NCBI RefSeq assembly: GCF_000008665.1 | Contig: NC_000917.1 | Span: forward strand, 1,050,001-1,082,000 | DNA from: Archaeoglobus fulgidus DSM 4304 | Lineage (GTDB): Archaea; Halobacteriota; Archaeoglobi; Archaeoglobales; Archaeoglobaceae | Direction of reading: 5' to 3' | Length of the DNA stretch: 32,000 nt | Shown here: positions 10,810 to 32,000 of the stretch, piece after piece | Numbering within the stretch: the first letter of the stretch is position 1 | How the letters are laid out: every line of letters begins with the position of its first letter | Program-made: the position numbers and the translations under genes | Notes under the pieces: model-generated | What the model was told of the DNA's origin: nothing | Database searches by the model: none | The model's input: only the letters and a program-made list of their open reading frames with translations

Positions 10810-10913
10810 TATTTTAAAGCTTTTAACACTTTTCAATAGATTGTCCAAGCGGGATTTTTTCGATGATAAAATGCTGAATATCTTTTTTCTCAGAATATTT
10901 TTTTATTAGTCGT

Positions 10914-10936
10914 ATGAAAAAAGTATTGAAAATTTT
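10914..10936 (-). terminator. Candidate oligo-T archaeal terminator after hbd
   Basis: The minus strand just after the stop reads TCTAAAATTTTCAATACTTTTTTC, which contains T4 and T6 runs. Confidence 0.35.
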
Positions 10937-10942
10937 AGATGA

Positions 10943-12664: not shown

Positions 12665-12696
12665 CTCCGGGCAGGGAAAAATGTACTGGAAAATAC

Positions 12697-17238: not shown

Positions 17239-18285
17239 TCACTTTATCTCAGAGAATGCCGGAATGATTCTCTCCGCATACACCTTCAGGACGTACTTGG
17301 GGTCGGGGCCGACGTTTATGAGCATGAAGTGCTTCACACCCGCCTTCACGAACTCCTCAATCTTTTCCTCGCAGTCCTCAGGAGTTCCAACGATGAAGAA
17401 GTCCCTTATCATCTCCTCGGTGACAAGGGATGAAAGCTTTACGAACTCCATAAGCATTTTGTCATCAAGAAGAAGTTGCTCGAAGTAGAATTTTTTTGAT
17501 ATGCCTTCCGGCATTTCGAGGCTGTATCCCGCCTGCTCCGCCTTTTCTGCCGCAGAAACAATCACACCGCTGAACTGCCTCGCCCTCTCCATTGCCCTCT
17601 CAAAAGATGTATCAACTGCGGTGTATATCTGCAACGCCGTGTCGATTTCATCAAGATTTCTTCCAGCCTTACTGCATCCGCGCTCAACGTCTTTTAGGTT
17701 CTCCCTGTACGTCTTCGGCGTTTCTGCAATGGGCATCCATCCGTCGCATATCTCTCCAGCGAGCTCTCTCGTTTTGACTCCATTTGCTCCGAGATAAATG
17801 GGAATCTTCTGTAGCGGCTTTATTTGAAGGAAGGCATCATCCAGCCTGAACCTTTTTCCCTCGTAGCTGAATCTATCTCCTGCCCACAGCCTCTTTATGA
17901 TCTCTATGCCCTCTCTCAGCGTCGTGTAGGGCTTTTTCCACTCTATGCCGAAGGGCTTTATGTTCATCGCCTCTCCTGCACCGAGCCCAAGGAAAGCCCT
18001 CCCATACGAGAGGTGGTCTATGGTGGCCATAATCTGAGCCAGAACGGAGGGATGGTAGCGAACAACATCGGTCACGCCCGTTCCCAGCATAGCCTTTGAA
18101 GTTTTGACTGCTAAAGCGGACAGCAGGGAAAGGGCGTTTGGCGTAAAGCCTGGGGGAACCATAAGAGTGTGGTCCGGCACCGTTAAAGAGAACATCCCGC
18201 TGTCCTCAGCCTGCTGGGCAATCTTAATAACCTTTTCAAGCGCGGGCATCGGAGGTGAGAGGAGCATGCCGAATCTGACGCTCAT
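17239..18285 (-). CDS. Luciferase-like (LLM) F420-dependent oxidoreductase, Mer-related
   Basis: The protein has the length of a TIM-barrel LLM family member, with Mer-like segments (FGMLLSP..., LGLGAGEAMN, GANGVKTRELAGEICDGW). The ATG at 18285 is preferred over the TTG at 18291. Confidence 0.8.
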   Translation of the reverse strand: MSVRFGMLLSPPMPALEKVIKIAQQAEDSGMFSLTVPDHTLMVPPGFTPNALSLLSALAVKTSKAMLGTGVTDVVRYHPSVLAQIMATIDHLSYGRAFLGLGAGEAMNIKPFGIEWKKPYTTLREGIEIIKRLWAGDRFSYEGKRFRLDDAFLQIKPLQKIPIYLGANGVKTRELAGEICDGWMPIAETPKTYRENLKDVERGCSKAGRNLDEIDTALQIYTAVDTSFERAMERARQFSGVIVSAAEKAEQAGYSLEMPEGISKKFYFEQLLLDDKMLMEFVKLSSLVTEEMIRDFFIVGTPEDCEEKIEEFVKAGVKHFMLINVGPDPKYVLKVYAERIIPAFSEIK

Positions 18286-18330
18286 AGCCAACAGGGAGAT
18301 TTCTCATTACTTATACTTTAACTATCTGTT

Positions 18331-18350
18331 GGAAAAAATAAAAATTAAAA
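18331..18350 (-). terminator. Oligo-T tract directly after the thiolase stop
   Basis: The minus strand reads TTTTAATTTTTATTTTTTCC. A TATA-like TTAAAGTATAA follows (about 18311..18322) for the LLM gene. Confidence 0.4.
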
Positions 18351-19625
18351 TCAGACTCTCTCAACAACCATCGCCATTCCCTGCCCACCGCCGATGCAGA
18401 GAGAGGCCAGACCGTAGTCCACCCCTCTCCTCTCCATCTCGTAGATGAGCGTTGTTGTTATCCTCGCCCCTGTGCAGCCAATTGGGTGGCCGAGGGATAT
18501 ACCGCTGCCGTTGACGTTGACCTTTTCCATGTCCAGTCCAAGCTCCTTTATGCAGGCTAACGCCTGAGCTGCAAAGGCTTCATTGAGCTCAATCAGCCCT
18601 ATGTCCTTGATTTCAGGCCCAGCTTTCTTCAGAACCTTTCTTATGGCTGGTATAGGCCCAAGGCCCATGTATGCAGGGTCGATGCCCGCTGAAGCAACAG
18701 CAAGTATTCTGACTTTCGGCTCCAGCCCGTAGTCCTTCGCTGCCTTCTCGTCCATAACCAGAACGGCAGCGGCTCCATCATTAACCCCACTCGCATTTCC
18801 TGCAGTGACAGTTCCATCCTTCTTGAAGACAGGGGGTAGCTTCGCGAGCTTCTCAAGGCTCGTGTCCCTTCTTGGATGCTCGTCGGTGTCCACCACAACT
18901 GCTCCCTTCTTCTGCTTAACCTCCACCGGGACTATCTCCTGAGCGAACTTGCCCTCGTCAATGGCCCTTACAGCCCTCATGTGGCTCTCGTATGCAAGCT
19001 GGTCCTGCTCCTCTCTGCTTATGCCGTACCTCTCCACTATGTTTTCGGCTGTCATCCCCATGTGGTAGCCGTAGAACTTCTCCCAGAGGCCGTCGTAAAC
19101 CATGAGGTCCAGAATCTCGTCCTTGGCTGTGACGCTCATCCTGTATCCCCACCTCGCCTTTGGCAGGGCGTAGGGGGCGTTGCTCATGCTCTCCATCCCT
19201 CCTGCGATGATTGCCTTAGCGTCTCCAGCCTTTACGGCGTGGTAGGCGAGGGCGATGGCCTTCAAGCCGCTCCCGCAAACCTTGTTGACAGTGTAAGCGG
19301 GAATCTCCTTTGGTATTCCCGCAAGAATTGACGCCTGCCTCGCTGGATTCTGTCCCTGAGCTGCCTGCAAAACGTTTCCCATAATGACTTCGTCAATCTC
19401 CACCTCAACCCCATCGTAGTCGTAGGCCGACTCCAGATCAATTCTGCCCTTCTCCAGCTTCTCCGGGTAGAACTCAATGGATTCGGGAGTGGGCTTTGGT
19501 GCAACGCCCAGCTTTTTCAGCATTCCCTTAATCGCAACAGCCCCAAGCTCGTATGCAGCTACATCCTTCAAGCTGCCTCCAAATCTACCCACGGGGGTTC
19601 TTGCCGCTCCTACAATAACTGCCAT
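18351..19625 (-). CDS. Acetyl-CoA C-acetyltransferase (thiolase II type)
   Basis: [28 protein letters not shown] and CIGGGQG are present. GGAGGTG lies 5 nt upstream of the ATG. Confidence 0.92.
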
Positions 19626-19637
19626 AATACACCTCCT

Positions 19638-20415
19638 TCACTTTTTTCTTATTAAAATACCATCCGGGTCCAATTCTTTAAGTGTGTCGATTTCCTCTCT
19701 TGTTGGTGGTTCGGTGTACTCGACTTCCTCCGGGATGATAATTTCAAAAGAGCTGTTATTCAACACGTCCTCAACGTTACGTCCTTCATGAAGCGCTAAG
19801 AGCTTCATTCTCTTCGTTTGCTCATCAAAACCGTAAACACCAATCTGCGTTATCACCCTGTAGGGGCCAGTGCCTTCCGGAAGTCCAGAACTTTCTCTGC
19901 TACCGTCGAGGTATCCGGGAGTTGTAAGAAAGTCAAGCTTTTCCACGAACCTGAGCTTATCCTGTCTCATCAGAACAATGTTTCTCCAGGAAAGCGAGGC
20001 GACATCGTTTGCTCCACCACTTCCGGGAAGCCTAACCTTCGGTTTTTCCCAGTCCCCTATGACTGTTGTGTTGATGTTGCCATAGGGGTCAATCTGTGCT
20101 GCCCCAAGGGAATCCGTAATCCACGTACCCCATCTGTGCCAAGGACATGACGTAATCCATGCTCGATGCCATAACCGCTTTGTAAAATGTCGCACTCTCT
20201 CCAACAGAAATGGGAATTCTCGGCAGTTTTGGTGCGATTCCTCCTGCCTCAAACACCAGTACAAGGTTTGGTGCGTAAAGTCTCTGAGCAAGACACGCAG
20301 CCAGAACAGGCATTCCTGTCCCCACAAACACACTTTTTCGGTCTTCGAGAATTCTTGCGGCGACACAAACCATGTACTCGGTATCAGAATACTCCACCAA
20401 GATTATCACCTCCAC
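19638..20415 (-). pseudogene. Family I CoA-transferase subunit B (glutaconate/3-oxoacid type), frame broken by an apparent 1-nt insertion at about 20105-20112
   Basis: ORF 20089..20415 encodes the N-terminal half, including the catalytic-Glu region LVFEAGG, and ends ...MGYVDYGFPWGSTD*. The conserved continuation LGAAQIDPYGNINTTVIG...PGSGGANDVA lies in another frame (ORF 19638..20366). The minus strand reads GGATTCCCTTGGGG, and removing one C restores YGFLGAAQID. Confidence 0.75.
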
Positions 20416-21422
20416 GGGTAAACAGGGCGCTCCCTGAGCTGCTCAATCCTTCTGAGTTTTTCGAGCCTCTTAGAACCACCGACAACTTCGAGGTACTCCC
20501 AGAAATCGTTGACTCCATAAACGTACTTTTCAAAGTACTCCTTGGCTCCCTCCTCCGTTCTCGTCAATGCAAGATACTCGGCAATGTGCTCCTCGTCAAA
20601 GTAGTAGAGCAAAGGCATATTACAGGGATGGGACGCAAAGGGCTGCTCTACAACGGCATCCACAAGGAAGTAGGGGATGGAGGTTCTCCACGGACTCTCC
20701 CTGATTTTGTCCGTCGGGACTATCTCCTCGGTTGTGACTATCAGCCTCTTCGCTGCCCTCGCAAGCTCGTAGTCTTCAACAAGGATTCCATCAATCTGAG
20801 CATTTCCGTATTTGTCGGCACGGTGAACGTGTATTATGGCCACATCGGGGAAGCAGGCCGGAATCAAGGTGACGGGCTTTCCGCTGTATGGGTCTCTGAT
20901 GATTTTGGCAGAACTCTTTTTGAACGTGTCCGTTCCCATCAAAATCCTTGCTGGAATGAAGGGAAGACCCATTGCCGCTGCTTTGAACCTCCATTGCAAA
21001 GCTGCGTTGCTCCACTCGGTGATAACCTTTACCTCCCCACCCTCAACCTTCCTTCTCGAAGCGGGCGACAGCCCCCTCAGCTCGTGGCCAAAGCTGTATG
21101 CAGCCTCAACCTTTTCAACGCAGCCGGCAGCCATCAGCACATCGAGGTCGTGCACCGAGGTCTTTCCCGCCATCGTAAGTCCCTTTACTCCCTGCCTGAT
21201 GATTTCATAAATGATGTTCATGGAAACCCTTACATGCCCGAATCCCCCGCTGGCGACGTACATGCCATCTTTGATGAAGTTCGAAACCGCCTCTTCTGCG
21301 GACATCGTCTTGTCAGCCATCTCTCTGCTCTTGTTGTCCCTCACCCACTCCCGGAACTCGTCAGGGTCACACCAGCCAACGAGGGGGCCTTCGCCTTCAT
21401 CCATAATTTCCAGAGGTTCCAT
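20406..21422 (-). CDS. Family I CoA-transferase subunit A (glutaconate/3-oxoacid CoA-transferase-like)
   Basis: The gene begins MEPLEIMDEGEG... after GGAGGTG, and SGGFG is present. The 109-aa N-terminal extension in the ORF track overlaps the cyclase gene and is Arg/Gly-rich nonsense. Confidence 0.8.
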   Translation of the reverse strand: MEPLEIMDEGEGPLVGWCDPDEFREWVRDNKSREMADKTMSAEEAVSNFIKDGMYVASGGFGHVRVSMNIIYEIIRQGVKGLTMAGKTSVHDLDVLMAAGCVEKVEAAYSFGHELRGLSPASRRKVEGGEVKVITEWSNAALQWRFKAAAMGLPFIPARILMGTDTFKKSSAKIIRDPYSGKPVTLIPACFPDVAIIHVHRADKYGNAQIDGILVEDYELARAAKRLIVTTEEIVPTDKIRESPWRTSIPYFLVDAVVEQPFASHPCNMPLLYYFDEEHIAEYLALTRTEEGAKEYFEKYVYGVNDFWEYLEVVGGSKRLEKLRRIEQLRERPVYPWR

Positions 21423-21472
21423 CTCTGCACCTCCTGTGTGAAAAATCAGAAACGGGAAAAATTGAAAAGAGG

Positions 21473-22345
21473 TTACCTCTTTTCGACAAGGGCGACGAGT
21501 CTGACTATTGAGCCATCTCCCTTGACCCACCTTATCGGCAGGCCGATTATCGTGCACCTCTGCCCTGTGACCTTGTCGATGTCCCCTCCTACATTCTCCC
21601 ATCCCATTATTCCGTGTGTAAGGAGCAGCCTGTGGCACGGCTCCCAGTAAGGGAAGTCCTCGCTGACATCTCTGCCCGTCAGCTGCTTGTACTCCTCCTT
21701 CAGCCACGGTAGAATTGAGTTTCTCTCGTCTGCACCGGGGTGGTGCCATGCTTCTCTCGTTGCAAGGGGGTGGTCGAGAGCCTGAGTGTCAATTCCCACG
21801 GCCTTAACCTTCTTTTTAACGAACCACTCACCTGCCTCCTTGTAAAATCCGGGCGCGTAGCAGAAGTACTTGACGCTGTCGCTCCAGTACCTGTGCCAGC
21901 CTGTGTTAACGATAACGATGTCTCCCTTCTCTATTGGAGGGTCGGCCTTCTCCAGATCCTCGGCGGTTATTACCTCCCACTTCTTTTTGGGAATCGAGAC
22001 CACAACACCCTCTCCCATGTACCTCTCTATCGGAACCTCGTCAATCGATGGAAATCCCTCCTCAACGTGTATCGGTGCGTCAGCATGCGTTGAAACGTGC
22101 ATGGTCGTCGTGATTATCTGGGAAAGAACTCTTGACTTGGCGTGGTAGTGGTAGCGGTCGATAATTACATCGTTGAAGTACGGCCACAGCGGCACACCGT
22201 AACCAAAGGGATTTGACAGGTCGTACACCTCAACTTCCTTTCCCAGAATCTTCAGCGCCGGCTTTTCCAGAATGTCCTCCGGATTCCCAATCAGCTCAGG
22301 GTCGAGCATTCCGTGAAGGTACGGAGAATCTGCTTCGTCCACCAT
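21473..22345 (-). CDS. Putative-cyclase family metal hydrolase (kynurenine formamidase / isatin hydrolase-type fold)
   Basis: HVSTHADAPIH fits the family signature HxxTHxDxPxH. GAGGTGAT lies 5 nt upstream of the ATG. Confidence 0.8.
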   Translation of the reverse strand: MVDEADSPYLHGMLDPELIGNPEDILEKPALKILGKEVEVYDLSNPFGYGVPLWPYFNDVIIDRYHYHAKSRVLSQIITTTMHVSTHADAPIHVEEGFPSIDEVPIERYMGEGVVVSIPKKKWEVITAEDLEKADPPIEKGDIVIVNTGWHRYWSDSVKYFCYAPGFYKEAGEWFVKKKVKAVGIDTQALDHPLATREAWHHPGADERNSILPWLKEEYKQLTGRDVSEDFPYWEPCHRLLLTHGIMGWENVGGDIDKVTGQRCTIIGLPIRWVKGDGSIVRLVALVEKR

Positions 22346-22386
22346 TCACCATCACCTCAAATGGACTTTCTGTAGAAACTTATTAA

Positions 22387-22402
22387 GAATTATCAATAAT
22401 TC
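22387..22402. promoter_or_regulatory. Perfect 16-bp palindrome GAATTATCAATAATTC in a divergent promoter region
   Basis: Read directly. It lies 42-57 nt upstream of the cyclase ATG (22345), where a TATA box would be expected. Confidence 0.4.
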
Positions 22403-22418
22403 TGTATAATTTTATGTG

Positions 22419-22432
22419 CAGCTATGTAGCTG
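22419..22432. promoter_or_regulatory. Perfect 14-bp palindrome CAGCTATGTAGCTG
   Basis: Read directly. It lies 17 nt from the first palindrome in the same intergenic region. Confidence 0.35.
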
Positions 22433-22502
22433 GAATTTGCGAGGTAGTGAGCAGCGCTTTCACCCAACCACTTCGTGCGTGGATTATTATTTAAGAATCG
22501 AA

Positions 22503-22510
22503 TTTAAAAA
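22503..22510 (+). promoter_or_regulatory. Candidate TATA box TTTAAAAA for the plus-strand hypothetical gene (leaderless)
   Basis: It is centred about 27 nt upstream of the ATG at 22533. Confidence 0.45.
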
Positions 22511-22532
22511 ACTTTTTGAACTTTGTAAAATA

Positions 22533-23102
22533 ATGAAAAATATGAAGACTAAGATGGTCAGGCTTGGCACATACGTTTCACAGGACGCATACAAACTCCT
22601 CAGAGAGCTGACAGAGCTTTACGGAAACCAGAGCAACGTCCTTGACCAGGCTATAAGGCTTCTCTACGACGTATCAAAGTATGGCTCAAAAGCTGACAGG
22701 ATTTTAATACGGGAGAAGCTAATTAACGAGTTCGAGAACATACTGATTTCCAAAAAGAATTTCATGCACCTTCTTGAAGGAAAAAAGGAGGGTCTGTTTG
22801 ACGAAGACGTTATAACAGCAGTAATACTGAGTTTTGTTGACGAGAGCATGGATTCCAAAAGCTTTTTCCCGAAGATGATGGATGCCCTAAAGAAGATTTA
22901 CGTCGAGGGGAACAGGTGGTTCACGAACATTGAGTACAAGGAGACTGAGAGCGGTTACAAGGTGACCTTCTACCACAACCTGAACAGCGAGTTCAGCGAC
23001 TTTGCATCCGAGTACTTCAGGAGATTTTTCAAAATAGGATATAAAATAGTTGAGGAGCAGAAGCTGAACAAGCTCTTCATCCTTCAGGTTTCCGAGTTTT
23101 AG
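22533..23102 (+). CDS. Hypothetical protein with a ribbon-helix-helix-like N-terminus; candidate cluster regulator
   Basis: MVRLGTYVSQDAYKLLRELTELYGNQSNVLDQAIRLLY has a strand-helix-helix pattern. The gene is AT-richer than its neighbours and is the only plus-strand gene in the cluster. The start could be 22533, 22542 or 22554; the track start at 22416 is unlikely. Confidence 0.45.
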   Translation: MKNMKTKMVRLGTYVSQDAYKLLRELTELYGNQSNVLDQAIRLLYDVSKYGSKADRILIREKLINEFENILISKKNFMHLLEGKKEGLFDEDVITAVILSFVDESMDSKSFFPKMMDALKKIYVEGNRWFTNIEYKETESGYKVTFYHNLNSEFSDFASEYFRRFFKIGYKIVEEQKLNKLFILQVSEF

Positions 23103-23574
23103 ATTTCTTCTTCAAATCCTCCACCGATTTGACCTGAAGACACTGAGCAACGCAGGCTGAAACGCAGGCGGGTTTTTTACCTTCCTCAATGCGCGGCATG
23201 CAGAGGTCGTAGATTCTGACTTTTCCATCATCGCCCAGCTGCGGCGCTCCGAATGGGCACACCTCCATGCAAATTTTGCAGCCTATGCACAAATCCAGGT
23301 CCAAGACCGTCATTCCATCCTCGCTTTTCCTCAGCGCACCAGTCGGGCACTCATCCACGCACGGGGCACTCAGGCAGTGCCTGCAAACGACGACTTTGAA
23401 GTGCTGCTGTACCTTCTCACCCGTAATCCTTGGTCCATCGTGGAAAACTCTGATTCTTCCGGGGTCGTCGAAGTTCTCGGAGCTGTGCTCGACCTTGCAT
23501 GCTATTACGCAGGCATAGCAGCCAATGCATTTCCTGCGGTCGTGAACGAAGGTCAGTTTTGACAATTCACTCAC
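23077..23574 (-). CDS. Four-cluster [4Fe-4S] ferredoxin-type subunit of a molybdopterin oxidoreductase (DmsB/PsrB-like)
   Basis: Four cluster motifs are present: CIGCYACVIAC, CRHCLSAPCVDECP, CIGCKICMEVCP and CMPR...CVSACVAQC. The GTG start at 23574 overlaps the stop of the catalytic subunit (GTGAGTGA). An alternative ATG lies at 23628. Confidence 0.85.
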   Translation of the reverse strand: MSELSKLTFVHDRRKCIGCYACVIACKVEHSSENFDDPGRIRVFHDGPRITGEKVQQHFKVVVCRHCLSAPCVDECPTGALRKSEDGMTVLDLDLCIGCKICMEVCPFGAPQLGDDGKVRIYDLCMPRIEEGKKPACVSACVAQCLQVKSVEDLKKKSKTRKPEG

Positions 23575-25687
23575 CCCCGTCGCATCTGTAAATCCTGCAA
23601 AGCATAGCCCTGAAGGTCGTGGAGCCAATGCAGGGGTCGAAGGGAGGTTTGTTGCTCGTCAGAACGTTGGCGTTGCTCTCGAAAATACCGAGGTCGGGTT
23701 TTTCCGGATAGTACCATGAAGCCTGAGCGAACACGTAGCGAGGATTCATAGCCTCAAAAAGCCTCGCCCTCTGCCTTATCCTTCCACGCGGGGTCTCAAT
23801 CCATATCCAGTCTCCGTCCTTTATTCCATATTTCTCAGCAGTTTCTGGATGTATCAGGGCTACTGGGTCGGGCTGCAGCTCTCTTAACCACGGATTCTGG
23901 CGGTACTGGGAGTGGAAGTAGTACGGCACCCTCCCGCCTGTGGAGAGTATCAGCGGATACTTCTCGCTCAGCTCCGGCGTGCTGTAGGGGCTTTCATTCG
24001 GCTCCCGGTAGTGGGGAAGCGGGTCGTAGTTGAGGTTTTCGAGGATGGTTGAGTAAAGCTCTATTTTGCCGGTCGGTGTTGGAAATCCTCCTCCCTCCCT
24101 CCAGTAGTTGGTTTTGTACTTGTAGTAGTGCTCCTTTCCGGTTCTTGCCAGCACGCCGATTTCCTTGAACTCCTCCCATGTAATCCCCGCCTTCCTGAGC
24201 TGGTAGTTCAGCATTTCGTAAACGTCGCTGAACCAGTACTTCGGTGCAAGCCTCTTGCCGAGTTCGTTGAATATCACGTTGTCGGGCAGAGCTTCCCCAA
24301 CAGGTTCAACCGCCCTGACTATCGCCGAGACGAAGAATCTGGGGTGCATGTCGTAAATATCGTCGGTTTCGAGCCAGTGTGCCGCTGGGAGAACGATGTC
24401 GGCATACTTTGCCGTCGGTGACATGTAGAGGTCAACAACCGAGATGAACTCCACGTTGAGCAATGCCTTGAGCACGTCTTTCGAGTTGGCGTAGGCCAGC
24501 ACGGGATTCGTTCCCTGAAGGTGCATCATTTTTATTCTTCTCTCCCCATTGAGCAGGTCCTCACAAACGCTCTCGAAGTGGCACATTGCGAAGGGCGGAA
24601 GGGCGAGAAGTTTGTACCTGTCAGCGCCGATGGGCAGCTCTTCAGGTGGCGGAACCTCTAAGGCGAACTCCTCCATCTCCCCTGTTTCTGGAGGCACCCA
24701 GTTCACCATTCCGCCAGGCCTCTCTATGTTGCCGGTTACCGCCATCAGACAGATTATTGCTCTGAGAGTTTGAATGGAGTTGTTTCCCGCTTCCAGAGCC
24801 TGACCTATCTGTATGCAGCCCGGTCTTGATGTTGCGAACCACTCCGCGGCGAGCTTTATCTTATCCTCGGGCACCCACGTGATTCTGCTCACCTTGTCAG
24901 GGCTGTACTCTTCAACTCTCTCCCTCAGCCTGTCGAAGCCGTGAGTCCACTGCTCCACGAAGTCTTTGTCGTAGAGCTCCTCGCTGATGATGACGTTGAG
25001 CATACCCAACGCGAGCGCAGCGTCAGTCCCCGGCCTTACGGGCAGCCAGAGGTCCGCTCTGTGTGCAACGGGAGTTGCCTTCGGGTCAACGAGGATGAAG
25101 TGCTCTGCCTCCTCCAGAGCCCTCAAAAACCAGACCGCCATCTCGCCGTCGGCGTTGGTGTACTCAAGCTGCTTTCCCCAGTGGACTATGGTTTTGGGGT
25201 ACTCCCCACCCCATCCGTGGTAGTCGCAGTACAGCCTGCCACCGACGGTAATGCCAAAGGCTGCGAGCCTTGGAGCATAGCAGAAATGTGCAGGCAGGAG
25301 GACGTTTGGCGATCCTATCGACCTCGCAAATCTGAACGTGTAGCGGTTGTAGCCTCTCCCTGTTCCCTGACCGATTAAAATTGAGGAGGGGCCGTACTCC
25401 TCGATGTATTCCTTCATTTTTTCCGCTATCGTATCCAGAGCCTCCTTCCAGCTTATTCTTTTCCACTCTCCCTCTCCTCTCTCGCCAACTCTCTTCAGCG
25501 GATATTTGAGCCTCGAAGGGTTGTAAACCTCCTTGATGCTCGCCAGTCCCTTTGGACACATCGTTCCTCTGGTAAGCGAGCTGGGATCACCCTCTATGTG
25601 CACTATTTTCCCTGACTTTACCTTAACGAGCACCCTGCATCCGCCGTGACAGCTCTTGCAGGTAGTTTTTACGACATGCTCGGACAT
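23567..25687 (-). CDS. Mo/W-bis(pyranopterin guanine dinucleotide) oxidoreductase catalytic subunit, no Tat signal
   Basis: The gene starts MSEHVVKTTCKSCHGGC...C(PKG), an N-terminal FS0 cluster motif, after GAGGTG. A DMSO-reductase-family body of about 706 aa follows. The candidate Mo ligand region is LLPAHFCYAPR. No RR motif or hydrophobic signal was seen. Confidence 0.85.
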   Translation of the reverse strand: MSEHVVKTTCKSCHGGCRVLVKVKSGKIVHIEGDPSSLTRGTMCPKGLASIKEVYNPSRLKYPLKRVGERGEGEWKRISWKEALDTIAEKMKEYIEEYGPSSILIGQGTGRGYNRYTFRFARSIGSPNVLLPAHFCYAPRLAAFGITVGGRLYCDYHGWGGEYPKTIVHWGKQLEYTNADGEMAVWFLRALEEAEHFILVDPKATPVAHRADLWLPVRPGTDAALALGMLNVIISEELYDKDFVEQWTHGFDRLRERVEEYSPDKVSRITWVPEDKIKLAAEWFATSRPGCIQIGQALEAGNNSIQTLRAIICLMAVTGNIERPGGMVNWVPPETGEMEEFALEVPPPEELPIGADRYKLLALPPFAMCHFESVCEDLLNGERRIKMMHLQGTNPVLAYANSKDVLKALLNVEFISVVDLYMSPTAKYADIVLPAAHWLETDDIYDMHPRFFVSAIVRAVEPVGEALPDNVIFNELGKRLAPKYWFSDVYEMLNYQLRKAGITWEEFKEIGVLARTGKEHYYKYKTNYWREGGGFPTPTGKIELYSTILENLNYDPLPHYREPNESPYSTPELSEKYPLILSTGGRVPYYFHSQYRQNPWLRELQPDPVALIHPETAEKYGIKDGDWIWIETPRGRIRQRARLFEAMNPRYVFAQASWYYPEKPDLGIFESNANVLTSNKPPFDPCIGSTTFRAMLCRIYRCDGGE

Positions 25688-25716
25688 TTCAGCACCTCTC
25701 AAAAAAATGGAAGGGA

Positions 25717-25824
25717 TTACTTTCTTCTTCTGGCTCCGTAAAATCCGAAGCCAAAATAAATGAACATGAGGGCGATTATCAGCGCCATCCACGTCACGGT
25801 TCCGACTTCAAGCATCATCTTCAT
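25717..25824 (-). CDS. Unannotated mini-ORF, 35 aa, single TM with a basic tail
   Basis: My own translation gives MKMMLEVGTVTWMALIIALMFIYFGFGFYGARRRK*. GAGGGTGA lies upstream of the internal ATGs. It overlaps the preceding mini-ORF by 17 nt in another frame and ends 29 nt before the Mo-enzyme ATG. Confidence 0.4.
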   Translation of the reverse strand: MKMMLEVGTVTWMALIIALMFIYFGFGFYGARRRK

Positions 25825-25930
25825 CACCCTCTTCCTCGCTCCAGTCAAGGAATAGCGAGATGACGTATCCCACCAGAGCTATTCCCACACTGAATCCGAA
25901 GCATTGCAGTATAACGTCTGCCGGAAACAT
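25808..25930 (-). CDS. Unannotated mini-ORF, 40 aa, single TM with an acidic tail
   Basis: My own translation gives MFPADVILQCFGFSVGIALVGYVISLFLDWSEEEGDEDDA*. GAGGGGGTGA lies 7 nt upstream of the ATG. The ORF starts 6 nt after the symporter stop. Confidence 0.45.
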   Translation of the reverse strand: MFPADVILQCFGFSVGIALVGYVISLFLDWSEEEGDEDDA

Positions 25931-25936
25931 TCCCTT

Positions 25937-27397
25937 TCACCCCCTCACAGCCAAAGCTTTTTCTCTGAAGAGTCCCGGCTTCCCTGGCAGAACCGCGTTT
26001 AGCAGTGAGCCGATCACCAGAGTAACTATGAGAGCGAGATAGACCTGATGCAGCCAACCCGGAGCTCCGAGAACTTCTGGCAGTGGAGTCATCGTCCATG
26101 CGTTTATGGTCACCCAAACCAGCAAGCACGTGATAATCGCCGCTGGGGCGGACCTCTTCCAGAAGAGCCCGAATATGACGAACCAGAACACTGGGACGAG
26201 CCATGAGAACAACCACATCATGGCGGCGAGTATTGGTGGGAGGCTCACAGCAGGAATCAGCGCGGCAACAGCGAGCAGAACGGTAAGAATTCTGGAGAGC
26301 CGGAGAAGCTCCTCATGCGAGGCATTCGGCTTGAGAACGGCCTTGTAAATGTCGTTAACGAATATCGTTGTGGGGGCGAGAAGTGTGATGGCGTAGGATG
26401 ACAGCACAGCAACAAGACAGGTTGCAAGAAGCAGTGCCGACGCCCATGTTGGCAGAACCGACACAATCATTGCGGGTGTAGCAGTCTTCGCACCGAGCTC
26501 GGCAAATTCCGGTGTTGCCCTTGCAGCCATTCCCATAACTGCGGCAAACACGGCAAAGGATCCGTTCACAGGCACGGCAATGAGCATAGCTTTTCTAAGC
26601 ACATCCGGAGATTTTGCTGCCAGTGCCGCATGCAGTCCCTGCTGGCTGATTCCCTGGAAAAACACCGTTGCGAGCACGTTCACGAGAGCAAAGCCGACGA
26701 AAACCTCCCATGATCCGAATATGTTGAGTTTGCCCGCCAAATCGTTGGAGATGTAGAACTCGTTAACGCCCTCCCATCCGTTCTGCAGCCCTGAGCCGAG
26801 AACGAAGGTTGCGGCAATGATGCCTATGTAAAGAATAACCGCGTTGAGAACGTTGAGCCATGCAACCTCTTTCATGCCCGAAAGGACGACGTAAAGAATT
26901 CCTATCAGCGCTCCAATCACTATCCCCACTTCTATAGAAGTTCCGGTGAGAATTGAGACGAAAACACCGAGTCCCTGTGTTTCAAGGGTGCAGATTCCGA
27001 AAATGGCTCCGGCTATGACAGCACCGACCATCAGCCTCAACCAGTAGTTGCTGAAAATGACGTCAAGAAACTCTGGAACGGACTCCACTTTGAGCTTTCT
27101 CGCCCATCTTCCAGTAAAAAGACATACAATTGCCAGCATTATTGCGTGTGCGAAGGAAAACCAGACCGCGGGCAATCCGATGTCATATGCCGACTCCATA
27201 ACTCCCAGTATGTGGGGAGTTCCAAGCACCGTAAGGGCGAGGGTAACACCAACTGGAACCGCACCCAGACCCCTTTTCGCAACCAGATAGTCCTCTTCGG
27301 ATTTTTCCATCCTTTTCATCAGGTAGAATCCAACACCAAGGGTTGTCACCAGGAAATACACCAAAACGGGTATCAGTATATCCCATCTTGCCTCCAA
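25937..27397 (-). CDS. Sodium:solute symporter (SSS) family transporter
   Basis: The protein is a 486-aa polytopic membrane protein. An N-terminal TM1 is followed by EEDYLVAKRGLG, typical of SSS/PutP-PanF-like carriers. The TTG start lies 6 nt after GGAGGTGG. Confidence 0.85.
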   Translation of the reverse strand: MEARWDILIPVLVYFLVTTLGVGFYLMKRMEKSEEDYLVAKRGLGAVPVGVTLALTVLGTPHILGVMESAYDIGLPAVWFSFAHAIMLAIVCLFTGRWARKLKVESVPEFLDVIFSNYWLRLMVGAVIAGAIFGICTLETQGLGVFVSILTGTSIEVGIVIGALIGILYVVLSGMKEVAWLNVLNAVILYIGIIAATFVLGSGLQNGWEGVNEFYISNDLAGKLNIFGSWEVFVGFALVNVLATVFFQGISQQGLHAALAAKSPDVLRKAMLIAVPVNGSFAVFAAVMGMAARATPEFAELGAKTATPAMIVSVLPTWASALLLATCLVAVLSSYAITLLAPTTIFVNDIYKAVLKPNASHEELLRLSRILTVLLAVAALIPAVSLPPILAAMMWLFSWLVPVFWFVIFGLFWKRSAPAAIITCLLVWVTINAWTMTPLPEVLGAPGWLHQVYLALIVTLVIGSLLNAVLPGKPGLFREKALAVRG

Positions 27398-27414
27398 AAT
27401 ACCACCTCCTGCAA

Positions 27415-28362
27415 TTAACCATCCTCCAAAATCAATTTGAGAATCTTCGCCAGCTGATCATCTCTCCACTTCGCAAGCTCATCGTATGACATTCTTTTGA
27501 TGATATCGTACCCCTCCATTGATTTGAGTATGGCGTCAAATGAGCCTTCCGGATACTCCGACCAGTTCGCCAGATCAGACCACAGTCGCCTGTAGTGGTC
27601 ATCGAAGAATTCGAGGAAGTACTTCATCCCGCCCTGACCACCACCGAGATGGTAGGTGAGGTAAACCCCAGTAATCGCCCATCTGATTCCCGGACCGTAT
27701 TTAACTGCCACATCTATCTCCTCAGGTGTGGCTATTCCCTGATAAACGAGGTTCACCGCCTCCCTCCACAGTGCTGCAGCAAGTCTGTTCGCCACCATTC
27801 CCGGAACGTCCTTCTTTACGACGATGGGCTTCTTGCCCATTCTCTCCATGAATTCAACTGTTTTCTCTGTGCAGCTTTCGTCCGTCTGCTTTCTCGGAAC
27901 GACCTCAACAAGCGGAATGAGGTGGGGCGGATTGTACGGATGGGCGGTAATGCACCTCTCGGGATGCTTTCTGGCAGCGGTCTGAATTTCTGATATGCTC
28001 AGACCTGATGTGCTCGTGGCGAGAATCGTTTCCGGTTCTGCAATTGCATCCATCTTTTCAAAAAGGTCTCTCTTAACTTCCAGCTTTTCCACCGCCGACT
28101 CCTGAACGTAGTATGCCCCTTTCAGTGCCTCTTCGAGGTTTTCAGTGAATTTAACTCTGCTCAGGGCGCTTTTCACGTCATCCTCACTACCAGAAAAAAT
28201 TTCACTGAGAGTTGAAACTGTGCGAGCGATGCTCGCTTCTGCCCTATTCAGAGCCTCAGGAAACGGGTCGTAAACCGCAACGTCACAACCACGCCAAGCA
28301 AAAAGTGACGCCCAGCTTGCGCCAACTGTTCCGGCGCCAATGCAGGCAACCTTTACGCCCAC
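27415..28362 (-). CDS. 3-hydroxyacyl dehydrogenase family, L-carnitine dehydrogenase / lambda-crystallin (free 3-hydroxy-acid) branch
   Basis: CIGAGTVGASWASLFAWRGCDV resembles the GxGxxGxxWA signature of LcdH/CRYL1-type enzymes, and HPYNPPHLIPLVEV is present. The GTG start follows GGAGGGG and overlaps the SDR 3' end by 10 nt. Confidence 0.75.
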   Translation of the reverse strand: MGVKVACIGAGTVGASWASLFAWRGCDVAVYDPFPEALNRAEASIARTVSTLSEIFSGSEDDVKSALSRVKFTENLEEALKGAYYVQESAVEKLEVKRDLFEKMDAIAEPETILATSTSGLSISEIQTAARKHPERCITAHPYNPPHLIPLVEVVPRKQTDESCTEKTVEFMERMGKKPIVVKKDVPGMVANRLAAALWREAVNLVYQGIATPEEIDVAVKYGPGIRWAITGVYLTYHLGGGQGGMKYFLEFFDDHYRRLWSDLANWSEYPEGSFDAILKSMEGYDIIKRMSYDELAKWRDDQLAKILKLILEDG

Positions 28363-29198
28363 GAAGTAACCCCTCCATCGATGTAGAGTATCTGCCCTGT
28401 CACGAAGTTCGACGCGTCAGAGGCGAAGAAAACAACTGCACCAATAAGGTCGTCTGGATACCCCCACCTTCCGAGAAGAATGCGCGATTTCATCGTCTTT
28501 GATAGTTCAGGATCCTTCATGATGTGGGCGGTGAGCGGTGTCGCAATTACTGTCGGGGCTATTGCGTTCACGAGGATGTTGTATTTTGCCCATTCACACG
28601 CCAGCTGTTTTGTTATCATGTTGACGGCAGCCTTACTGGAGCAGTAGGCGATGTAGTTTTTGGGCATACCGTAGCTGCTTCTGACAGAGGACACGTTGAT
28701 TATTTTCCCTCCATTCTGCTTGACCATCACCTTGCCGACCTCTCTGCAAACCAGGAACACTCCCGTGACGTTTGCATCCATGACCTTGTTCCAGTCTTCC
28801 AGCGGATACTCCTCAGCAGGTTTCGGAATGTTTATCCCCGCGCAGTTAACGAGGATGTCAATCCTGCCGAACTCCTCCACCGTCCTGTTCACAAGATTTG
28901 CTACATCCTCCTCGCTTGTGATGTCGCACTTTACTGCCAGTGCTCTTTGCCCAAGCTTTTCTATGCTTTCCTTCAGTTTTTCCAGCACCTCCAGTCTTCT
29001 TCCCACCACAACAACGTCGCACCCAAAGTCCGCCAGTCCGAGAGCGATTGGCCCACCAAGTCCACCGGTGGCACCTGTGACAATGGCCACCTTTCCGGTC
29101 AAGTCAAACATCTTTCTGTACCCCATCGAACCGCTCTGAATTCTCTCCTCCAGAGATTTCTCGTAATCCTCTATGGACTCGAAAACCTCCTTTACCAT
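28353..29198 (-). CDS. Classical short-chain dehydrogenase/reductase with a 35-aa N-terminal extension
   Basis: TGATGGLG, NCAGI, and Ser...YCSSKAA (the YxxxK motif) are present. The ATG at 29198 lies 7 nt after GAGGTGG, which overlaps the cupin stop. Confidence 0.85.
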   Translation of the reverse strand: MVKEVFESIEDYEKSLEERIQSGSMGYRKMFDLTGKVAIVTGATGGLGGPIALGLADFGCDVVVVGRRLEVLEKLKESIEKLGQRALAVKCDITSEEDVANLVNRTVEEFGRIDILVNCAGINIPKPAEEYPLEDWNKVMDANVTGVFLVCREVGKVMVKQNGGKIINVSSVRSSYGMPKNYIAYCSSKAAVNMITKQLACEWAKYNILVNAIAPTVIATPLTAHIMKDPELSKTMKSRILLGRWGYPDDLIGAVVFFASDASNFVTGQILYIDGGVTSWA

Positions 29199-29208
29199 TT
29201 TGACCACC

Positions 29209-29553
29209 TCACGCCTTGGGGTAGCTCGCAATTACAAGCATTGTTGCCGGCATGTTCGTCTCGTTTACCAGGTACCTCGACTCGCCCGGCGGAATGTACA
29301 GGGAGTCCATCGGCCCCAGCTCAATTTTCTCCCCGCCTTCCTTCACTACGGTCATCTTTCCGCTCAGCACTATGTACACCTTCTCAATGTCGCTCTTGTC
29401 CCAGTCTGCACCTCCTCCGGGGAGAAAATGAGACAGACCAACCCAGAAGTTCTCAGAGCCTGTGGTTTCCTTGTGATGCAGCCTCAAAGCAACCATGTTA
29501 AAATGGCCCGGCGCCTCGTATGGTTTCACATCATCTATGCAGACCTTCTTCAT
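29209..29553 (-). CDS. Small cupin-fold protein
   Basis: The 114-aa protein has a beta-barrel pattern (...FLPGGGADWDKSDIEKVYIVLSGKMTV...ELGPMDSLYIPPGE...). No canonical HxH metal motif was seen. Confidence 0.65.
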   Translation of the reverse strand: MKKVCIDDVKPYEAPGHFNMVALRLHHKETTGSENFWVGLSHFLPGGGADWDKSDIEKVYIVLSGKMTVVKEGGEKIELGPMDSLYIPPGESRYLVNETNMPATMLVIASYPKA

Positions 29554-29571
29554 GATTTAGCTTCAAAAAAG

Positions 29572-29580
29572 TTAATTTAA
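29572..29580 (-). promoter_or_regulatory. Candidate TATA box (TTAAATTAA) for the cupin-to-FeS operon, leaderless
   Basis: It is centred about 23 nt upstream of the ATG at 29553. Confidence 0.45.
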
Positions 29581-29590
29581 GTATGTTTTC

Positions 29591-29637
29591 AATATCATTA
29601 CATATCATTATACAATGTGGTTCGACTCTACATATCA
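29591..29637. promoter_or_regulatory. Direct repeats ATATCATTA x2 (29592-29600, 29602-29610) plus a third ACATATCA (29630-29637)
   Basis: Read directly. They lie 40-85 nt upstream of the cupin start, just beyond the TATA candidate. Confidence 0.4.
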
Positions 29638-29644
29638 GCCACAC

Positions 29645-29658
29645 CTCGTTTAAACGAG
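29645..29658. repeat. Perfect 14-bp palindrome CTCGTTTAAACGAG
   Basis: Read directly. It lies between the F420-reductase stop and the cupin promoter. Confidence 0.7.
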
Positions 29659-29718
29659 CTTCGCTTGAACAATTCGAAAAATCTGTTAAAGAAAAGGTAA
29701 ATACTACAAATAGAAATT

Positions 29719-30360
29719 TTAGCGAAATGAAATTCCAAGTTCTCCAGTTTTGTTCCTTTTCATCACGTTGAGTATAAGCGGCGTCAGGGATTCCACCAGA
29801 TGAGCGTTTGAAAGCCCGCCAGCATCCAGGGCTCTCAGCCCCGAAATTTTCTCAGTAAGGTCAACAACCACCTCTTTTGCACCGCTGTCACCGCAAATCG
29901 GGACGTCCCACTCGAACTCTTCGCCAAGATTTGCGAACCTCCTTGCGGGAATCGAGTGGTATGCTGCAACTACGCTGCTTTCTTCCAGTACTGACGCAAG
30001 CTTCTCTGCTGCCGAGCCCTCCTCAGGTCTGACGTAAACGAAGTTATCGCCGACTTTTTTCATAGGCACCAGCGGTGAGATTACCACCTTCCCCGCCAGC
30101 TGCCTTTTCAGCATTTCCGCTGTGTCAAAGGCGAACTCCCACGGAATCGTGAATACAGCAACATCGCAGGTTTCTGCGGCATCCTCATTTCGCATTCCTA
30201 TTATGGATGCATCGCCGACCTTTTTCAGGTAATCCGATGCCAGTTTCTCAGCCTTTTCAAGCTTTCTTGAGCCAACTATGATTTCGTAGCCCAGCTTGCC
30301 CCATCGCAGAGCCAGACCTTCCCCAAGGTTGCCCGTACCTCCAAGAAGGGCGATTTTCAT
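29719..30360 (-). CDS. NADPH-dependent F420 reductase (NpdG/Fno family)
   Basis: MKIALLGGTGNLGEGLALRWGKLGYEIIVGSR is the Fno/NpdG N-terminal signature. The length is 213 aa. Confidence 0.85.
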   Translation of the reverse strand: MKIALLGGTGNLGEGLALRWGKLGYEIIVGSRKLEKAEKLASDYLKKVGDASIIGMRNEDAAETCDVAVFTIPWEFAFDTAEMLKRQLAGKVVISPLVPMKKVGDNFVYVRPEEGSAAEKLASVLEESSVVAAYHSIPARRFANLGEEFEWDVPICGDSGAKEVVVDLTEKISGLRALDAGGLSNAHLVESLTPLILNVMKRNKTGELGISFR

Positions 30361-30376
30361 TGCACCACCAAAAAAG

Positions 30377-31318
30377 TTAGAAGTTTACCCTTTCCTTTCC
30401 CTTAAGTCCGAGTATCTCCCTCACCTCGTCAGGTGTTGCGGGCCTCTTTCCGAGTTCCTTCACAATCCTTACCATTTTTTCGACCTGCTCGGCGTTGCTT
30501 TTAGCAAGCTTGCCTCTTTCAATGTAAAGGCTGTCCTCAAGCCCCACTCTCACGTCACCGCCCATTATCACCGCAAGCGTTCCGAGAGGCATCTGAAATC
30601 TGCCCGCTCCAACAAGGGACCACGTGTAGTTCTCCCTGCCAATTAACCTGTCTGCCGTCTGCTTCATGAACAGAACATCCTCAACAGCGGTTCCAATTCC
30701 GCCGAGTATCCCATGGATGAACTGCAGCCTGAGTGGCGGTTCGAGGTAGCCCTCGTGGAACATGAAGGCCGTGTTGTATATCTGCCCTATGTCGTAGCAC
30801 TCAAGCTCCGGCTTCGTGTCGTTCTCCTTGAAAATTCTCGAAAGCGCCTCAAGGTCCTTGAACGTGTTTCTGAAAACTATGTCCCTCGTCATTTCGAGAT
30901 ACTCGGGCTCCCAGTCGTACTTGAACTCCTTGTACTTTTTGAGTAGTGGATGAATGGCGAAGTTCATGGAGCCCATGTTGAAGGTTGCGATTTCCGGTTT
31001 CAGGGCGGGCACGACCTTTGCCCTCTCCTCAACGGGTATTCCCAGTGTGCCTCCTCCTCCGGTTGTAACATTAATAACAACATCGCTCTGCTTTTTGATT
31101 TCCCTGCATATGTACCTGAAAACCTCAACATCCGTTGTGGGGCGCCCGTCTTTCGGGTCTCTCGCGTGAATGTGAACCATTCCGGCCCCTGCCTCTGCGG
31201 CCTTCACCGCTTCCTCCACAATCTGGTCGGGTGTGACCGGCAGGTACGGGGACATGCTCGGAGTGTGTATCGCTCCCGTTATGGCGCACGTGACAATAAC
31301 CACATCGTCCTTCCTCAT
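30377..31318 (-). CDS. Beta-keto acid cleavage enzyme (BKACE/DUF849; 3-keto-5-aminohexanoate cleavage enzyme family)
   Basis: VIVTCAITGA, the Zn-site-like MVHIHARDP and a TIM-barrel length of 313 aa support the call. Confidence 0.85.
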   Translation of the reverse strand: MRKDDVVIVTCAITGAIHTPSMSPYLPVTPDQIVEEAVKAAEAGAGMVHIHARDPKDGRPTTDVEVFRYICREIKKQSDVVINVTTGGGGTLGIPVEERAKVVPALKPEIATFNMGSMNFAIHPLLKKYKEFKYDWEPEYLEMTRDIVFRNTFKDLEALSRIFKENDTKPELECYDIGQIYNTAFMFHEGYLEPPLRLQFIHGILGGIGTAVEDVLFMKQTADRLIGRENYTWSLVGAGRFQMPLGTLAVIMGGDVRVGLEDSLYIERGKLAKSNAEQVEKMVRIVKELGKRPATPDEVREILGLKGKERVNF

Positions 31319-31426: not shown

Positions 31427-32000
31427 ATGGAGCGCTTGTTTTACCCGAAAGTCGTGGCAGTGATAGGTGCTTCACCTCAGGAGGGAAAGGTGGGTAACAC
31501 GATTATGAAAAATCTCAGAAACTTCAGCGGCACTGTCTATGCTGTAAACCCGAAGTACAGGGAAATACTTGGATTCCCGTGCTACCCCTCGGTACTCAAG
31601 ATACCCGAAAATGTGGACCTGGCCATCATCGTTGTTCCAGCGAAGCTCGTTCCGAAGGCAGTGGAGGAGTGCGGAAGGAAGGACGTTGAAGGTGCCGTGG
31701 TGATTTCGGCAGGCTTCAAGGAGGCCGGGATTGAGGGGGCAAAGCTTGAGAGGGAACTGGTCGAGGTGGCCGAAAGGTATGGCGTTAAGCTGGTTGGCCC
31801 CAACTGTCTCGGCATGATAAACACCGAGATTGCTATGAACGCCACGTTCAGCAGAGTGGCCCCCGAAAAGGGCAGAATAGCGTTCCTCAGCCAGTCCGGA
31901 GCCTTCATTCTCGCGGTTCTTGAATGGTCAAAACGCAACGGTGTCGGTTTCAGCAAGGTTGTCAGCTTGGGAAACAAGGCCATGCTCGACGAATCCGACT
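31427..32000 (+). CDS. acd: ADP-forming acetyl/acyl-CoA synthetase, canonical alpha-first order, 5' partial (runs off the window)
   Basis: This gene is not in the ORF track. My own translation gives MERLFYPKVVAVIGASPQEGKVGNTIMKNL...VNPKY...GPNCLGMIN...SQSGAF... with no stop up to 32000. The track ORF 31582..31983(-) is its antisense shadow. Confidence 0.85.
   Translation, partial: MERLFYPKVVAVIGASPQEGKVGNTIMKNLRNFSGTVYAVNPKYREILGFPCYPSVLKIPENVDLAIIVVPAKLVPKAVEECGRKDVEGAVVISAGFKEAGIEGAKLERELVEVAERYGVKLVGPNCLGMINTEIAMNATFSRVAPEKGRIAFLSQSGAFILAVLEWSKRNGVGFSKVVSLGNKAMLDESD

Follow-up and report, generated by a model that had tools for sequence, protein, structure and literature searches.

A candidate phloroglucinol-type catabolic gene cluster, with putatively accessory Mo/W enzyme and cupin genes, in the archaeon Archaeoglobus fulgidus

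Introduction

Does a run of genes on one strand of the Archaeoglobus fulgidus DSM 4304 chromosome encode an anaerobic route for the breakdown of phloroglucinol, and what might the additional genes among them be for? The genes in question occupy positions 17239-31318 of a 32,000-nucleotide stretch of contig NC_000917.1 (positions 1,050,001 to 1,082,000; hereafter the window, from whose first letter all coordinates are counted), where a listing of open reading frames (ORFs), their translations, and Pfam and NCBIfam scans reveal a minus-strand gene cluster. The reading that we favour, and consider probable, is that this locus is the A. fulgidus copy of an anaerobic phloroglucinol-type catabolic cluster that follows the route set out below, with a molybdenum or tungsten (Mo/W) enzyme and a cupin as accessory parts.

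The point of comparison is the pathway of Clostridium scatologenes, in which an NADPH-dependent phloroglucinol reductase (PGR) of the short-chain dehydrogenase/reductase (SDR) family is followed by a Mn-dependent dihydrophloroglucinol cyclohydrolase (DPGC), an (S)-3-hydroxy-5-oxohexanoate dehydrogenase (HOHD) of the 3HCDH family and a triacetate acetoacetate-lyase (TAL), the last being a beta-keto acid cleavage enzyme (BKACE), together with a thiolase and a CoA-transferase (Zhou et al., 2023, mBio, PMC10470551). The original prediction for this stretch, which was made from the sequence alone, held that such a pathway had only been reported in bacteria. That claim falls: Zhou et al. (2023) report that Archaeoglobus carries the cluster, and the DSM 4304 cyclase is included, in a 278-aa form (O29068), in their Data sets S3 and S4. 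An archaeal phloroglucinol cluster at this locus is already published, as a bioinformatic statement. The same paper says nothing of cupins, F420 or Mo enzymes in the clusters (PMC10470551), and our literature searches found no later work on the archaeal one.

If the reading is right, a marine sulfate reducer that is also a hyperthermophile would be able to mineralise an intermediate central to the degradation of flavonoids, tannins and phlorotannins, and polyphenol turnover would reach into hot anoxic habitats and many uncultured archaea (Bathyarchaeia, Nitrososphaerota, Nezhaarchaeales, Hadesarchaea). What remains of interest at the locus is a family of Mo/W enzymes that resemble acetylene hydratase, along with the cupin and a second SDR type.

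Ring opening and final cleavage

The genes that we assign to the core route are the following, all on the minus strand.

18351-19625, minus: acetoacetyl-CoA thiolase (Thiolase_N and Thiolase_C; TIGR01930, 491 bits against a cut-off of 240.6)
19638-20409, minus: CoA-transferase subunit B, frameshifted (three-frame translation and DNA alignments)
20406-21422, minus: family I CoA-transferase subunit A (PF01144, 174 bits)
21473-22345, minus: cyclase-family hydrolase, predicted DPGC (UniProt O29068; PF04199)
27415-28362, minus: 3HCDH of the free-acid type, candidate HOHD (TfD/HOHD; 3HCDH_N and 3HCDH domains)
28353-29198, minus: SDR, candidate (dihydro)phloroglucinol-forming reductase of a 'type II' clade (adh_short_C2, 225 bits)
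30377-31318, minus: BKACE, predicted TAL (PF05853, 359 bits)

Two of these steps, the final cleavage and the ring opening, are the best supported. The BKACE scores 452.2 bits against the NCBIfam equivalog NF053538 (3,5-dioxohexanoate:acetyl-CoA acetone transferase, which is the TAL reaction), above the cut-off of 430, and this supports the earlier proposal that it supplies the TAL step. PDB entry 3LOT is essentially identical to it (706.9 bits) and is the crystallised form of the A. fulgidus enzyme, whose locus tag, by consecutive numbering, is probably AF1210. It also aligns at 315 bits with BKACE15 of Paracoccus denitrificans (8RIO), for which activity on 3,5-dioxohexanoate has been shown by experiment. 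The predicted reaction of the archaeal enzyme is the conversion of 3,5-dioxohexanoate and acetyl-CoA to acetoacetate and acetoacetyl-CoA.

The cyclase is 41% identical to the DPGC of C. scatologenes (CsDPGC; E 3e-62), a value that is approximate, as are those for the dehydrogenase CsTfD below, since both query sequences were rebuilt from optical character recognition (OCR) text of alignments in the paper's supplement. Its HxxxHxDxPxH metal site is intact, as are the WPY residues by which DPGC differs from isatin hydrolase (Zhou et al., 2023, PMC10470551), and LWPYF and H83..H87xD89xPxH93 are invariant in the cyclase alignment. Kynurenine formamidases and isatin hydrolases are remote matches only. 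The original prediction had placed the ring-opening cyclohydrolase in this family, and correctly: the characterised DPGC is a 'cyclase' family member (PMC10470551).

Carnitine, lysine fermentation and kynurenine had been named beforehand as the substrates whose enzymes might claim these genes. These readings were rejected, as the relevant equivalog scores are all below cut-off: the lysine KCE model gives the BKACE 259.7 bits (cut-off 382), the arylformamidase model gives the cyclase 62.5 (cut-off 223), and the 3HCDH is below both carnitine-dehydrogenase cut-offs.

Reduction and dehydrogenation

The two remaining core enzymes are less sharply defined. Among the NCBIfam models no DPGC, PGR or TfD model was matched, and the hits were to generic or below-cut-off families only. 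The 3HCDH shares 37% identity with CsTfD over 230 aa (approximate, from the OCR-derived query), and its best PDB match, at 165 bits, is lambda-crystallin (L-gulonate 3-dehydrogenase), a dehydrogenase of free acids. These resemblances are compatible with an HOHD role and are non-diagnostic. Identity to the 3HCDHs of other clusters is only 32-45%.

In a neighbour-joining tree, the SDRs that adjoin DPGC-like cyclases (loci L005-L082 of the sample described below) fall into two deep clades, which are told apart by the loop motifs PTVFR[ST]xLTxWM and P[TC][IV]xxTPLT. The clade with the former motif, here called 'type I', holds PDB 5G4K together with mycobacterial and deltaproteobacterial cluster SDRs. 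We take 5G4K to be the phloroglucinol reductase of Conradt because it is the top PDB match of the mycobacterial cluster SDR; this is our assumption, and a literature search for 5G4K and 5G4L returned no confirmation of it.

Several observations weigh against phloroglucinol catabolism as the function of the locus. The A. fulgidus SDR, along with the other archaeal SDRs, sits in the clade that contains neither 5G4K nor the PTVFR[ST]xLTxWM loop ('type II'), and it scores 148 bits to 5G4K (about 38th in the PDB) against 219 bits to the gluconate 5-dehydrogenase of Thermotoga maritima (1VL8). The 37% or so identity between the 3HCDH and CsTfD is a level common throughout the family. Acetoacetate, triacetate and other beta-keto acids are unstable at 80 °C. 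The gene for CoA-transferase B is frameshifted in the DSM 4304 genome. Our literature searches returned no growth, induction or enzyme data for any archaeon, and AF1202, AF1203 and AF1209 showed low or unchanged expression under standard conditions in published transcriptomes (PMC3949148, PMC4543118).

Because the SDR lies outside the clade of 5G4K and ranks that structure low, we infer its role as a phloroglucinol reductase from gene linkage. In accord with the original assignment the protein is an SDR; it adjoins the cyclase as in other loci, and it belongs to a clade separate from the presumed solved PGR.

The order of core reactions that had been proposed, from SDR to cyclase, free-acid 3HCDH, BKACE and CoA-transferase with thiolase, matches the C. 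scatologenes pathway (PMC10470551). In A. fulgidus the route might operate as follows. The SSS transporter would import the solute. Phloroglucinol, or a very close analogue of it, would undergo NADPH-dependent reduction by the SDR to dihydrophloroglucinol. The Mn-type cyclase-family hydrolase would then open the ring by a retro-Claisen reaction to give 3-hydroxy-5-oxohexanoate, which the free-acid 3HCDH would oxidise to 3,5-dioxohexanoate. After the BKACE had cleaved this product onto acetyl-CoA, giving acetoacetate and acetoacetyl-CoA, the CoA-transferase and thiolase would turn both into acetyl-CoA, for use by the neighbouring ADP-forming acetyl-CoA synthetases or by the acetyl-CoA pathway. 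The Mo/W enzyme with its ferredoxin-like partner and the cupin would be accessory parts of an extended version of the cluster that occurs in several phyla, and would most likely convert another hydroxylated aromatic into the substrate of the core. Family membership, the equivalog status of the TAL, the homology to DPGC and the synteny are what the sequences show, whereas the actual substrate, the activity of the SDR and the parts played by the Mo/W enzyme, cupin, npdG and LLM are inferred.

The A. fulgidus cluster resembles that of C. scatologenes in its four enzyme families, thiolase and CoA-transferase, and in a cyclase with the same ligands and WPY residues. It differs in having a 'type II' SDR and an SSS rather than an MFS transporter, and in adding the cupin, the Mo/W enzyme with its beta subunit, a paralogue of the F420 reductase Fno and an LLM oxidoreductase. 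It lacks acetate or butyrate kinase genes, being flanked instead by ADP-forming acetyl-CoA synthetases, and its host is a hyperthermophilic sulfate reducer.

A second comparison is with Mycobacterium tuberculosis Rv1714-Rv1718, a cluster that we take to comprise an SDR, FadB3, the cyclase, the cupin Rv1717 and a BKACE. Its cyclase is in the same UniRef50 cluster as that of A. fulgidus (A5U375), mycobacterial cyclases being about 64% identical to the archaeal one, and it too holds a cupin within the cluster. Unlike in A. fulgidus, the SDR is of 'type I', with 5G4K as its top PDB match, the BKACE is only about 33% identical, and there is no Mo enzyme. Rv1714-Rv1716 are mentioned in PMC5894108.

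Conservation of the cluster

Species-representative genomes were scanned with the cyclase alignment, and 78 loci among the top 80 listed were kept (they carry the prefix L here). The window proteins were searched by BLAST against the ORFs of these loci, and neighbours were counted within 10 kb of the cyclase. An SDR was found beside the cyclase at 64 of the 78 loci, the cupin at 52, a 3HCDH at 51 and a BKACE at 34, with all four at 27; the same CoA-transferase pair was present at five. The cupin accompanies the cyclase more often than the BKACE does. It is one of the most consistently co-located genes and stands outside what the characterised pathway accounts for; cupin and second SDR type alike are conserved in most clusters, beyond that pathway.

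Within Archaeoglobus, strain DSM 8774 is 99.5% identical to the window across 18.4 kb and has the full A. fulgidus gene order, including npdG and the LLM gene, and a metagenome-assembled genome (MAG) of Archaeoglobus sp. has the same order from the cupin through CoA-transferase B. The expectation of synteny in relatives therefore holds for the core genes, as shown by these two genomes and the 27 loci with all four. It does not hold for the F420 genes outside A. fulgidus: npdG lay beside the cyclase at none of the 78 loci and the LLM gene gave weak matches at three, which leaves the suggested F420-using version of the pathway unsupported.

The one Archaeoglobus sp. MAG was the only member of the Archaeoglobi among the 78 kept loci, in a scan limited by its pattern and to the top 80, with DSM 8774 identified apart from that scan; it is no more than suggested that other Archaeoglobi lack the cluster. 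The nearest cyclases, at 70-82% identity, come from Bathyarchaeia, Nitrososphaerota/Caldarchaeales, Nezhaarchaeales, Hadesarchaea and Promethearchaeota, and this distribution points to horizontal spread.

In three Nitrososphaerota MAGs (L003, L004 and L010), cyclase, SDR, cupin and 3HCDH genes are followed by an HMGL-like gene (aldolase/lyase family) in the place of the BKACE, and an ABC transporter is present. The HMGL-like gene may provide an alternative C-C cleavage step.

The CoA-transferase and the acetyl-CoA end of the route

CoA-transferase B of DSM 4304 carries a +1 frameshift, with an extra C at about 20107-20109, where the minus strand reads GGATTCCCTTGGGG. Deleting one C restores a 256-aa subunit, and in DNA alignments both DSM 8774 and the Archaeoglobus sp. 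MAG have one base fewer at this site and an intact CoA-transferase B. Either this strain has a genuine lesion of its own here, or the genome sequence is wrong at this point.

The lesion raises the question of whether the cluster in DSM 4304 is a decaying or non-functional horizontal acquisition, with the frameshift marking its loss of function. That two relatives lack the frameshift speaks for this, as do the low expression of the genes (PMC3949148), the proximity of the cyclase to those of Bathyarchaeia and Nitrososphaerota (about 80% identity), and the return of a single Archaeoglobus sp. MAG from all the Archaeoglobi among the 78 kept loci, in a scan that did not return A. fulgidus itself. 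However, the other genes are all intact and the two strains are 99.5% identical, the extra base could be a sequencing error, and the pathway could reach acetoacetate and acetoacetyl-CoA without the transferase. We consider decay quite improbable. CoA-transferase A/B pairs 62-68% identical to that of A. fulgidus adjoin the cyclase at L016, L043, L049 and L067.

Genes for ADP-forming acetyl-CoA synthetases lie on both sides of the cluster, one divergent from the BKACE gene with its start at 31427 (31427-32000 within the window) and the other at 12697-14691; enoyl-CoA hydratase and 3HCDH genes lie downstream of the latter (block 10943-14691), and a further 3HCDH gene is found at 117-1055. The flanking synthetases fit an acetyl-CoA end product, though their position may be coincidence.

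The Mo/W enzyme

Between the ring-opening and the reductive genes lies a pair that has no counterpart in the C. scatologenes cluster:

23077-23565, minus: four-cluster ferredoxin-type beta subunit, AF1202 (Fer4_11; DmsB-like, 117 bits)
23567-25687, minus: cytoplasmic Mo/W bis-molybdopterin guanine dinucleotide (bis-MGD) alpha subunit, AF1203, acetylene-hydratase-like (PF04879, PF00384, PF01568)

The N-terminus of the alpha subunit, MSEHVVKTTCKSCHGGC, has no twin-arginine signal and the protein is therefore cytoplasmic, in agreement with the two-subunit cytoplasmic enzyme that was predicted. Its best PDB match is acetylene hydratase (2E7Z; 380 bits, E 1.5e-112), followed by FdhF-type enzymes at 240 and 200 bits. 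Like the acetylene hydratase of Pelobacter acetylenicus, it is a cytoplasmic protein with an N-terminal [4Fe-4S] motif and a Cys metal ligand. In 13 members of the alpha family the CKSCHGxC [4Fe-4S] motif (CKSCHGGC...C44 in A. fulgidus), Cys136 and His14 are invariant, and Cys136 aligns with the metal-ligand residue in the YMC of acetylene hydratase and is followed by Tyr/Phe-x-Pro. The A. fulgidus enzyme differs from acetylene hydratase in having a separate four-cluster beta subunit and in the residue at Asp13, which is catalytic in that enzyme and whose position is taken by the invariant His14. The alpha family is large and is found at 60-80% identity across Bathyarchaeia, Promethearchaeota, Chloroflexota, Deltaproteobacteria and Spirochaetia under generic names only; it is conserved, turns up repeatedly within phloroglucinol or flavonoid-type clusters of archaea and bacteria, and has no characterised member.

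The original prediction had likened the pair to the pyrogallol-phloroglucinol transhydroxylase of Pelobacter, which is likewise a cytoplasmic alpha/beta bis-MGD enzyme and acts upstream of phloroglucinol degradation. The connection is one of superfamily only, acetylene hydratase being the closest solved relative. No transhydroxylase large subunit occurs among the 60 PDB sequences that match alpha with E <= 1e-10, and arsenite oxidase scores higher. The best PDB match of beta is PsrB/NrfC (2VPW_B, 84 bits), with the pyrogallol hydroxytransferase small subunit at rank 26 (35 bits); that subunit has 274 aa, whereas the A. fulgidus beta has 162 and is DmsB/PsrB-like. Homology specific to the transhydroxylase was accordingly rejected, and it is possible that AF1203/AF1202 is a functional analogue.

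In the energy-metabolism literature on A. fulgidus the same pair is labelled a putative cytoplasmic formate dehydrogenase (PMC3949148, PMC4543118), in which case it would stand in the cluster by chance. Beyond the name, the FdhF-type PDB matches are what this identification has to offer, and acetylene hydratase scores far higher than they do. The label is poorly supported at the sequence level, because the formate dehydrogenase alpha model TIGR01591 reaches only 322 bits against a cut-off of 666 and because Tyr or Phe follows the Cys ligand. Formate dehydrogenases have a Sec/Cys-His dyad in the active site, in place of which the alpha family has Tyr/Phe-x-Pro. Moreover, in unrelated phyla genes of the family show linkage to those for the cyclase, SDR and BKACE, and AF1202 and AF1203 showed no regulation on CO or H2 (PMC4543118). 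We find a formate dehydrogenase at this position hardly credible; metabolic models in print use the enzyme under this name, and we regard it as more probably an accessory of a polyphenol cluster.

It is the recurrent linkage that argues for a functional place in the cluster, as had been proposed. In a proteobacterial MAG (L039), cyclase, cupin, BKACE, SDR, 3HCDH, alpha and beta form one co-directional block; an archaeal contig (L083) has cupin, SDR, 3HCDH, alpha and beta in a row with the cyclase 5 kb away; and the gene immediately after the BKACE in a deltaproteobacterium (L087) is alpha, with no beta. At L086 alpha adjoins CoA-transferase genes, a phloretin-hydrolase-family gene, a SnoaL protein and an OYE-type enoate reductase. 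Neither L086 nor L087 has a ferredoxin-like beta gene next to alpha, and beta is therefore not an obligatory partner. In our view the Mo/W enzyme truly belongs, as an accessory, to an extended polyphenol/phloroglucinol cluster, in which it probably turns another hydroxylated aromatic into the substrate of the core enzymes; dehydroxylation, hydroxyl transfer, and hydration of resorcinol to dihydrophloroglucinol are all conceivable reactions.

The family also occurs in other company. Three homologues 68-69% identical to alpha (L084, L085 and L088) sit in another conserved block, together with SnoaL-like, OYE/Pyr_redox enoate-reductase-like and HpaB-like genes and two acyl-CoA dehydrogenases, with no phloroglucinol genes, which suggests a second pathway context. 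A single Bathyarchaeia MAG (DRTY-6_201907_bins_50) has two separate pairs of a DPGC-like cyclase and an acetylene-hydratase-like Mo enzyme (L009 and L019) with no SDR, 3HCDH or BKACE within reach; by Pfam the neighbours at L019 are HpaB-like, DUF362, M24 and thioesterase genes, which form no clear pathway.

These pairs bear on another account, according to which the downstream chemistry (cyclic 1,3-dione to 3,5-dioxohexanoate) is as described, the physiological substrate is something other than phloroglucinol, and the pathway is entered through the Mo/W enzyme, whose action on another phenol is the first committed step. That step could be a reductive dehydroxylation or hydroxyl transfer on pyrogallol, hydroxyhydroquinone or a tetrahydroxybenzene, or the hydration of the keto tautomer of resorcinol to dihydrophloroglucinol. 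The cyclase and Mo pairs without an SDR would be explained in this way, as would an SDR outside the presumed PGR clade, and in several phyla alpha lies within the cluster. An alpha without beta is what one would expect of a non-redox enzyme. The closest characterised relative, acetylene hydratase, has as its sister group the catechol dehydroxylases of gut Actinobacteria, with homologues 'even in Archaea' (PMC7028382). However, the invariant His in the place of Asp13 tells against this account, the four-cluster beta subunit kept in A. fulgidus suggests redox chemistry, and the three family contexts with SnoaL, OYE-type reductases and acyl-CoA dehydrogenases have no phloroglucinol genes. This account seems unlikely to us.

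A broader proposal can be put forward tentatively, as possible and on the doubtful side: that AF1203 represents a new, widely transferred, acetylene-hydratase-like Mo/W family that funnels polyphenols into the phloroglucinol pathway, that the cupin is a further component of this pathway, and that the formate dehydrogenase role is overturned. Candidate reactions for such an enzyme would be an O2-independent dehydroxylation or hydroxyl shift of tri- and tetrahydroxybenzenes, or the hydration of resorcinol to dihydrophloroglucinol.

Cupin, F420 genes and transporter

The other features of the cluster are as follows.

17239-18291, minus: LLM oxidoreductase, Mer-like, F420-type (PF00296)
22539-23102, plus: hypothetical 187-aa protein, the sole plus-strand gene (ORF listing)
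25808-25930, minus: hydrophobic ORF of 40 aa (translation)
25937-27397, minus: SSS sodium:solute symporter (PF00474)
29209-29553, minus: small cupin (PF07883)
29719-30360, minus: npdG, paralogue of NADPH-dependent F420 reductase, AF1209 (TIGR01915, 229 bits against a cut-off of 149.8)

All the gene families and coordinates that had been named were confirmed by the ORF listing, Pfam and NCBIfam, and so was the layout on one strand in about four units, which are set apart by gaps of 50-165 nt. The gene junctions of the CoA-transferase A/B, SDR/3HCDH and alpha/beta pairs are overlapping or abutting. Judging by the numbering, the cluster would run from AF1196/7 to AF1210. A sigma-70 promoter scan, being inapplicable to an archaeon, was not used, and terminator-like sites in the same scan were at background level.

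The cupin (114 aa) has its canonical His metal ligands replaced. It scores 80 bits against the M. tuberculosis cupin model NF050094, below the cut-off, and a PDB search gave weak matches only, to generic Mn cupins (<=23.5 bits), which offered no clue to function. The mycobacterial counterpart of this protein appears to be Rv1717.

By TIGR01915, which speaks to family only, npdG is a true member of the Fno family; its expression is reported as low (PMC3949148), and its membership of the pathway is uncertain. At most, Fno might link the SDR's demand for NADPH to the F420 pool of the organism. The LLM protein is below every NCBIfam cut-off, with Mer as its best PDB match (184 bits), and its membership is doubtful.

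The SSS symporter, the presumed importer of the substrate, occurs at the cluster in Archaeoglobus only, and TRAP or ABC transporters stand in the equivalent place elsewhere. The 40-aa ORF, which has an acidic tail and directly follows the SSS gene, is likewise called there in both DSM 8774 and Archaeoglobus sp.; it may encode a small transporter subunit. The plus-strand gene has no Pfam match; Archaeoglobus sp. has a 74% identical gene at the same position, which carries a weak AF_0136_C annotation. It could conceivably encode a regulator.

Outside the cluster, a gene for the replication factor C (RFC) large subunit directly follows the LLM gene on the same strand; this gene and the flanking acetate-CoA ligase are of Archaeoglobus type. 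At 8000-11000 of the window the G+C content drops to 0.42-0.43, across the genes for a protein of 449 aa that carries an AN1 zinc finger at its N-terminus and for a YdjM-family membrane protein.

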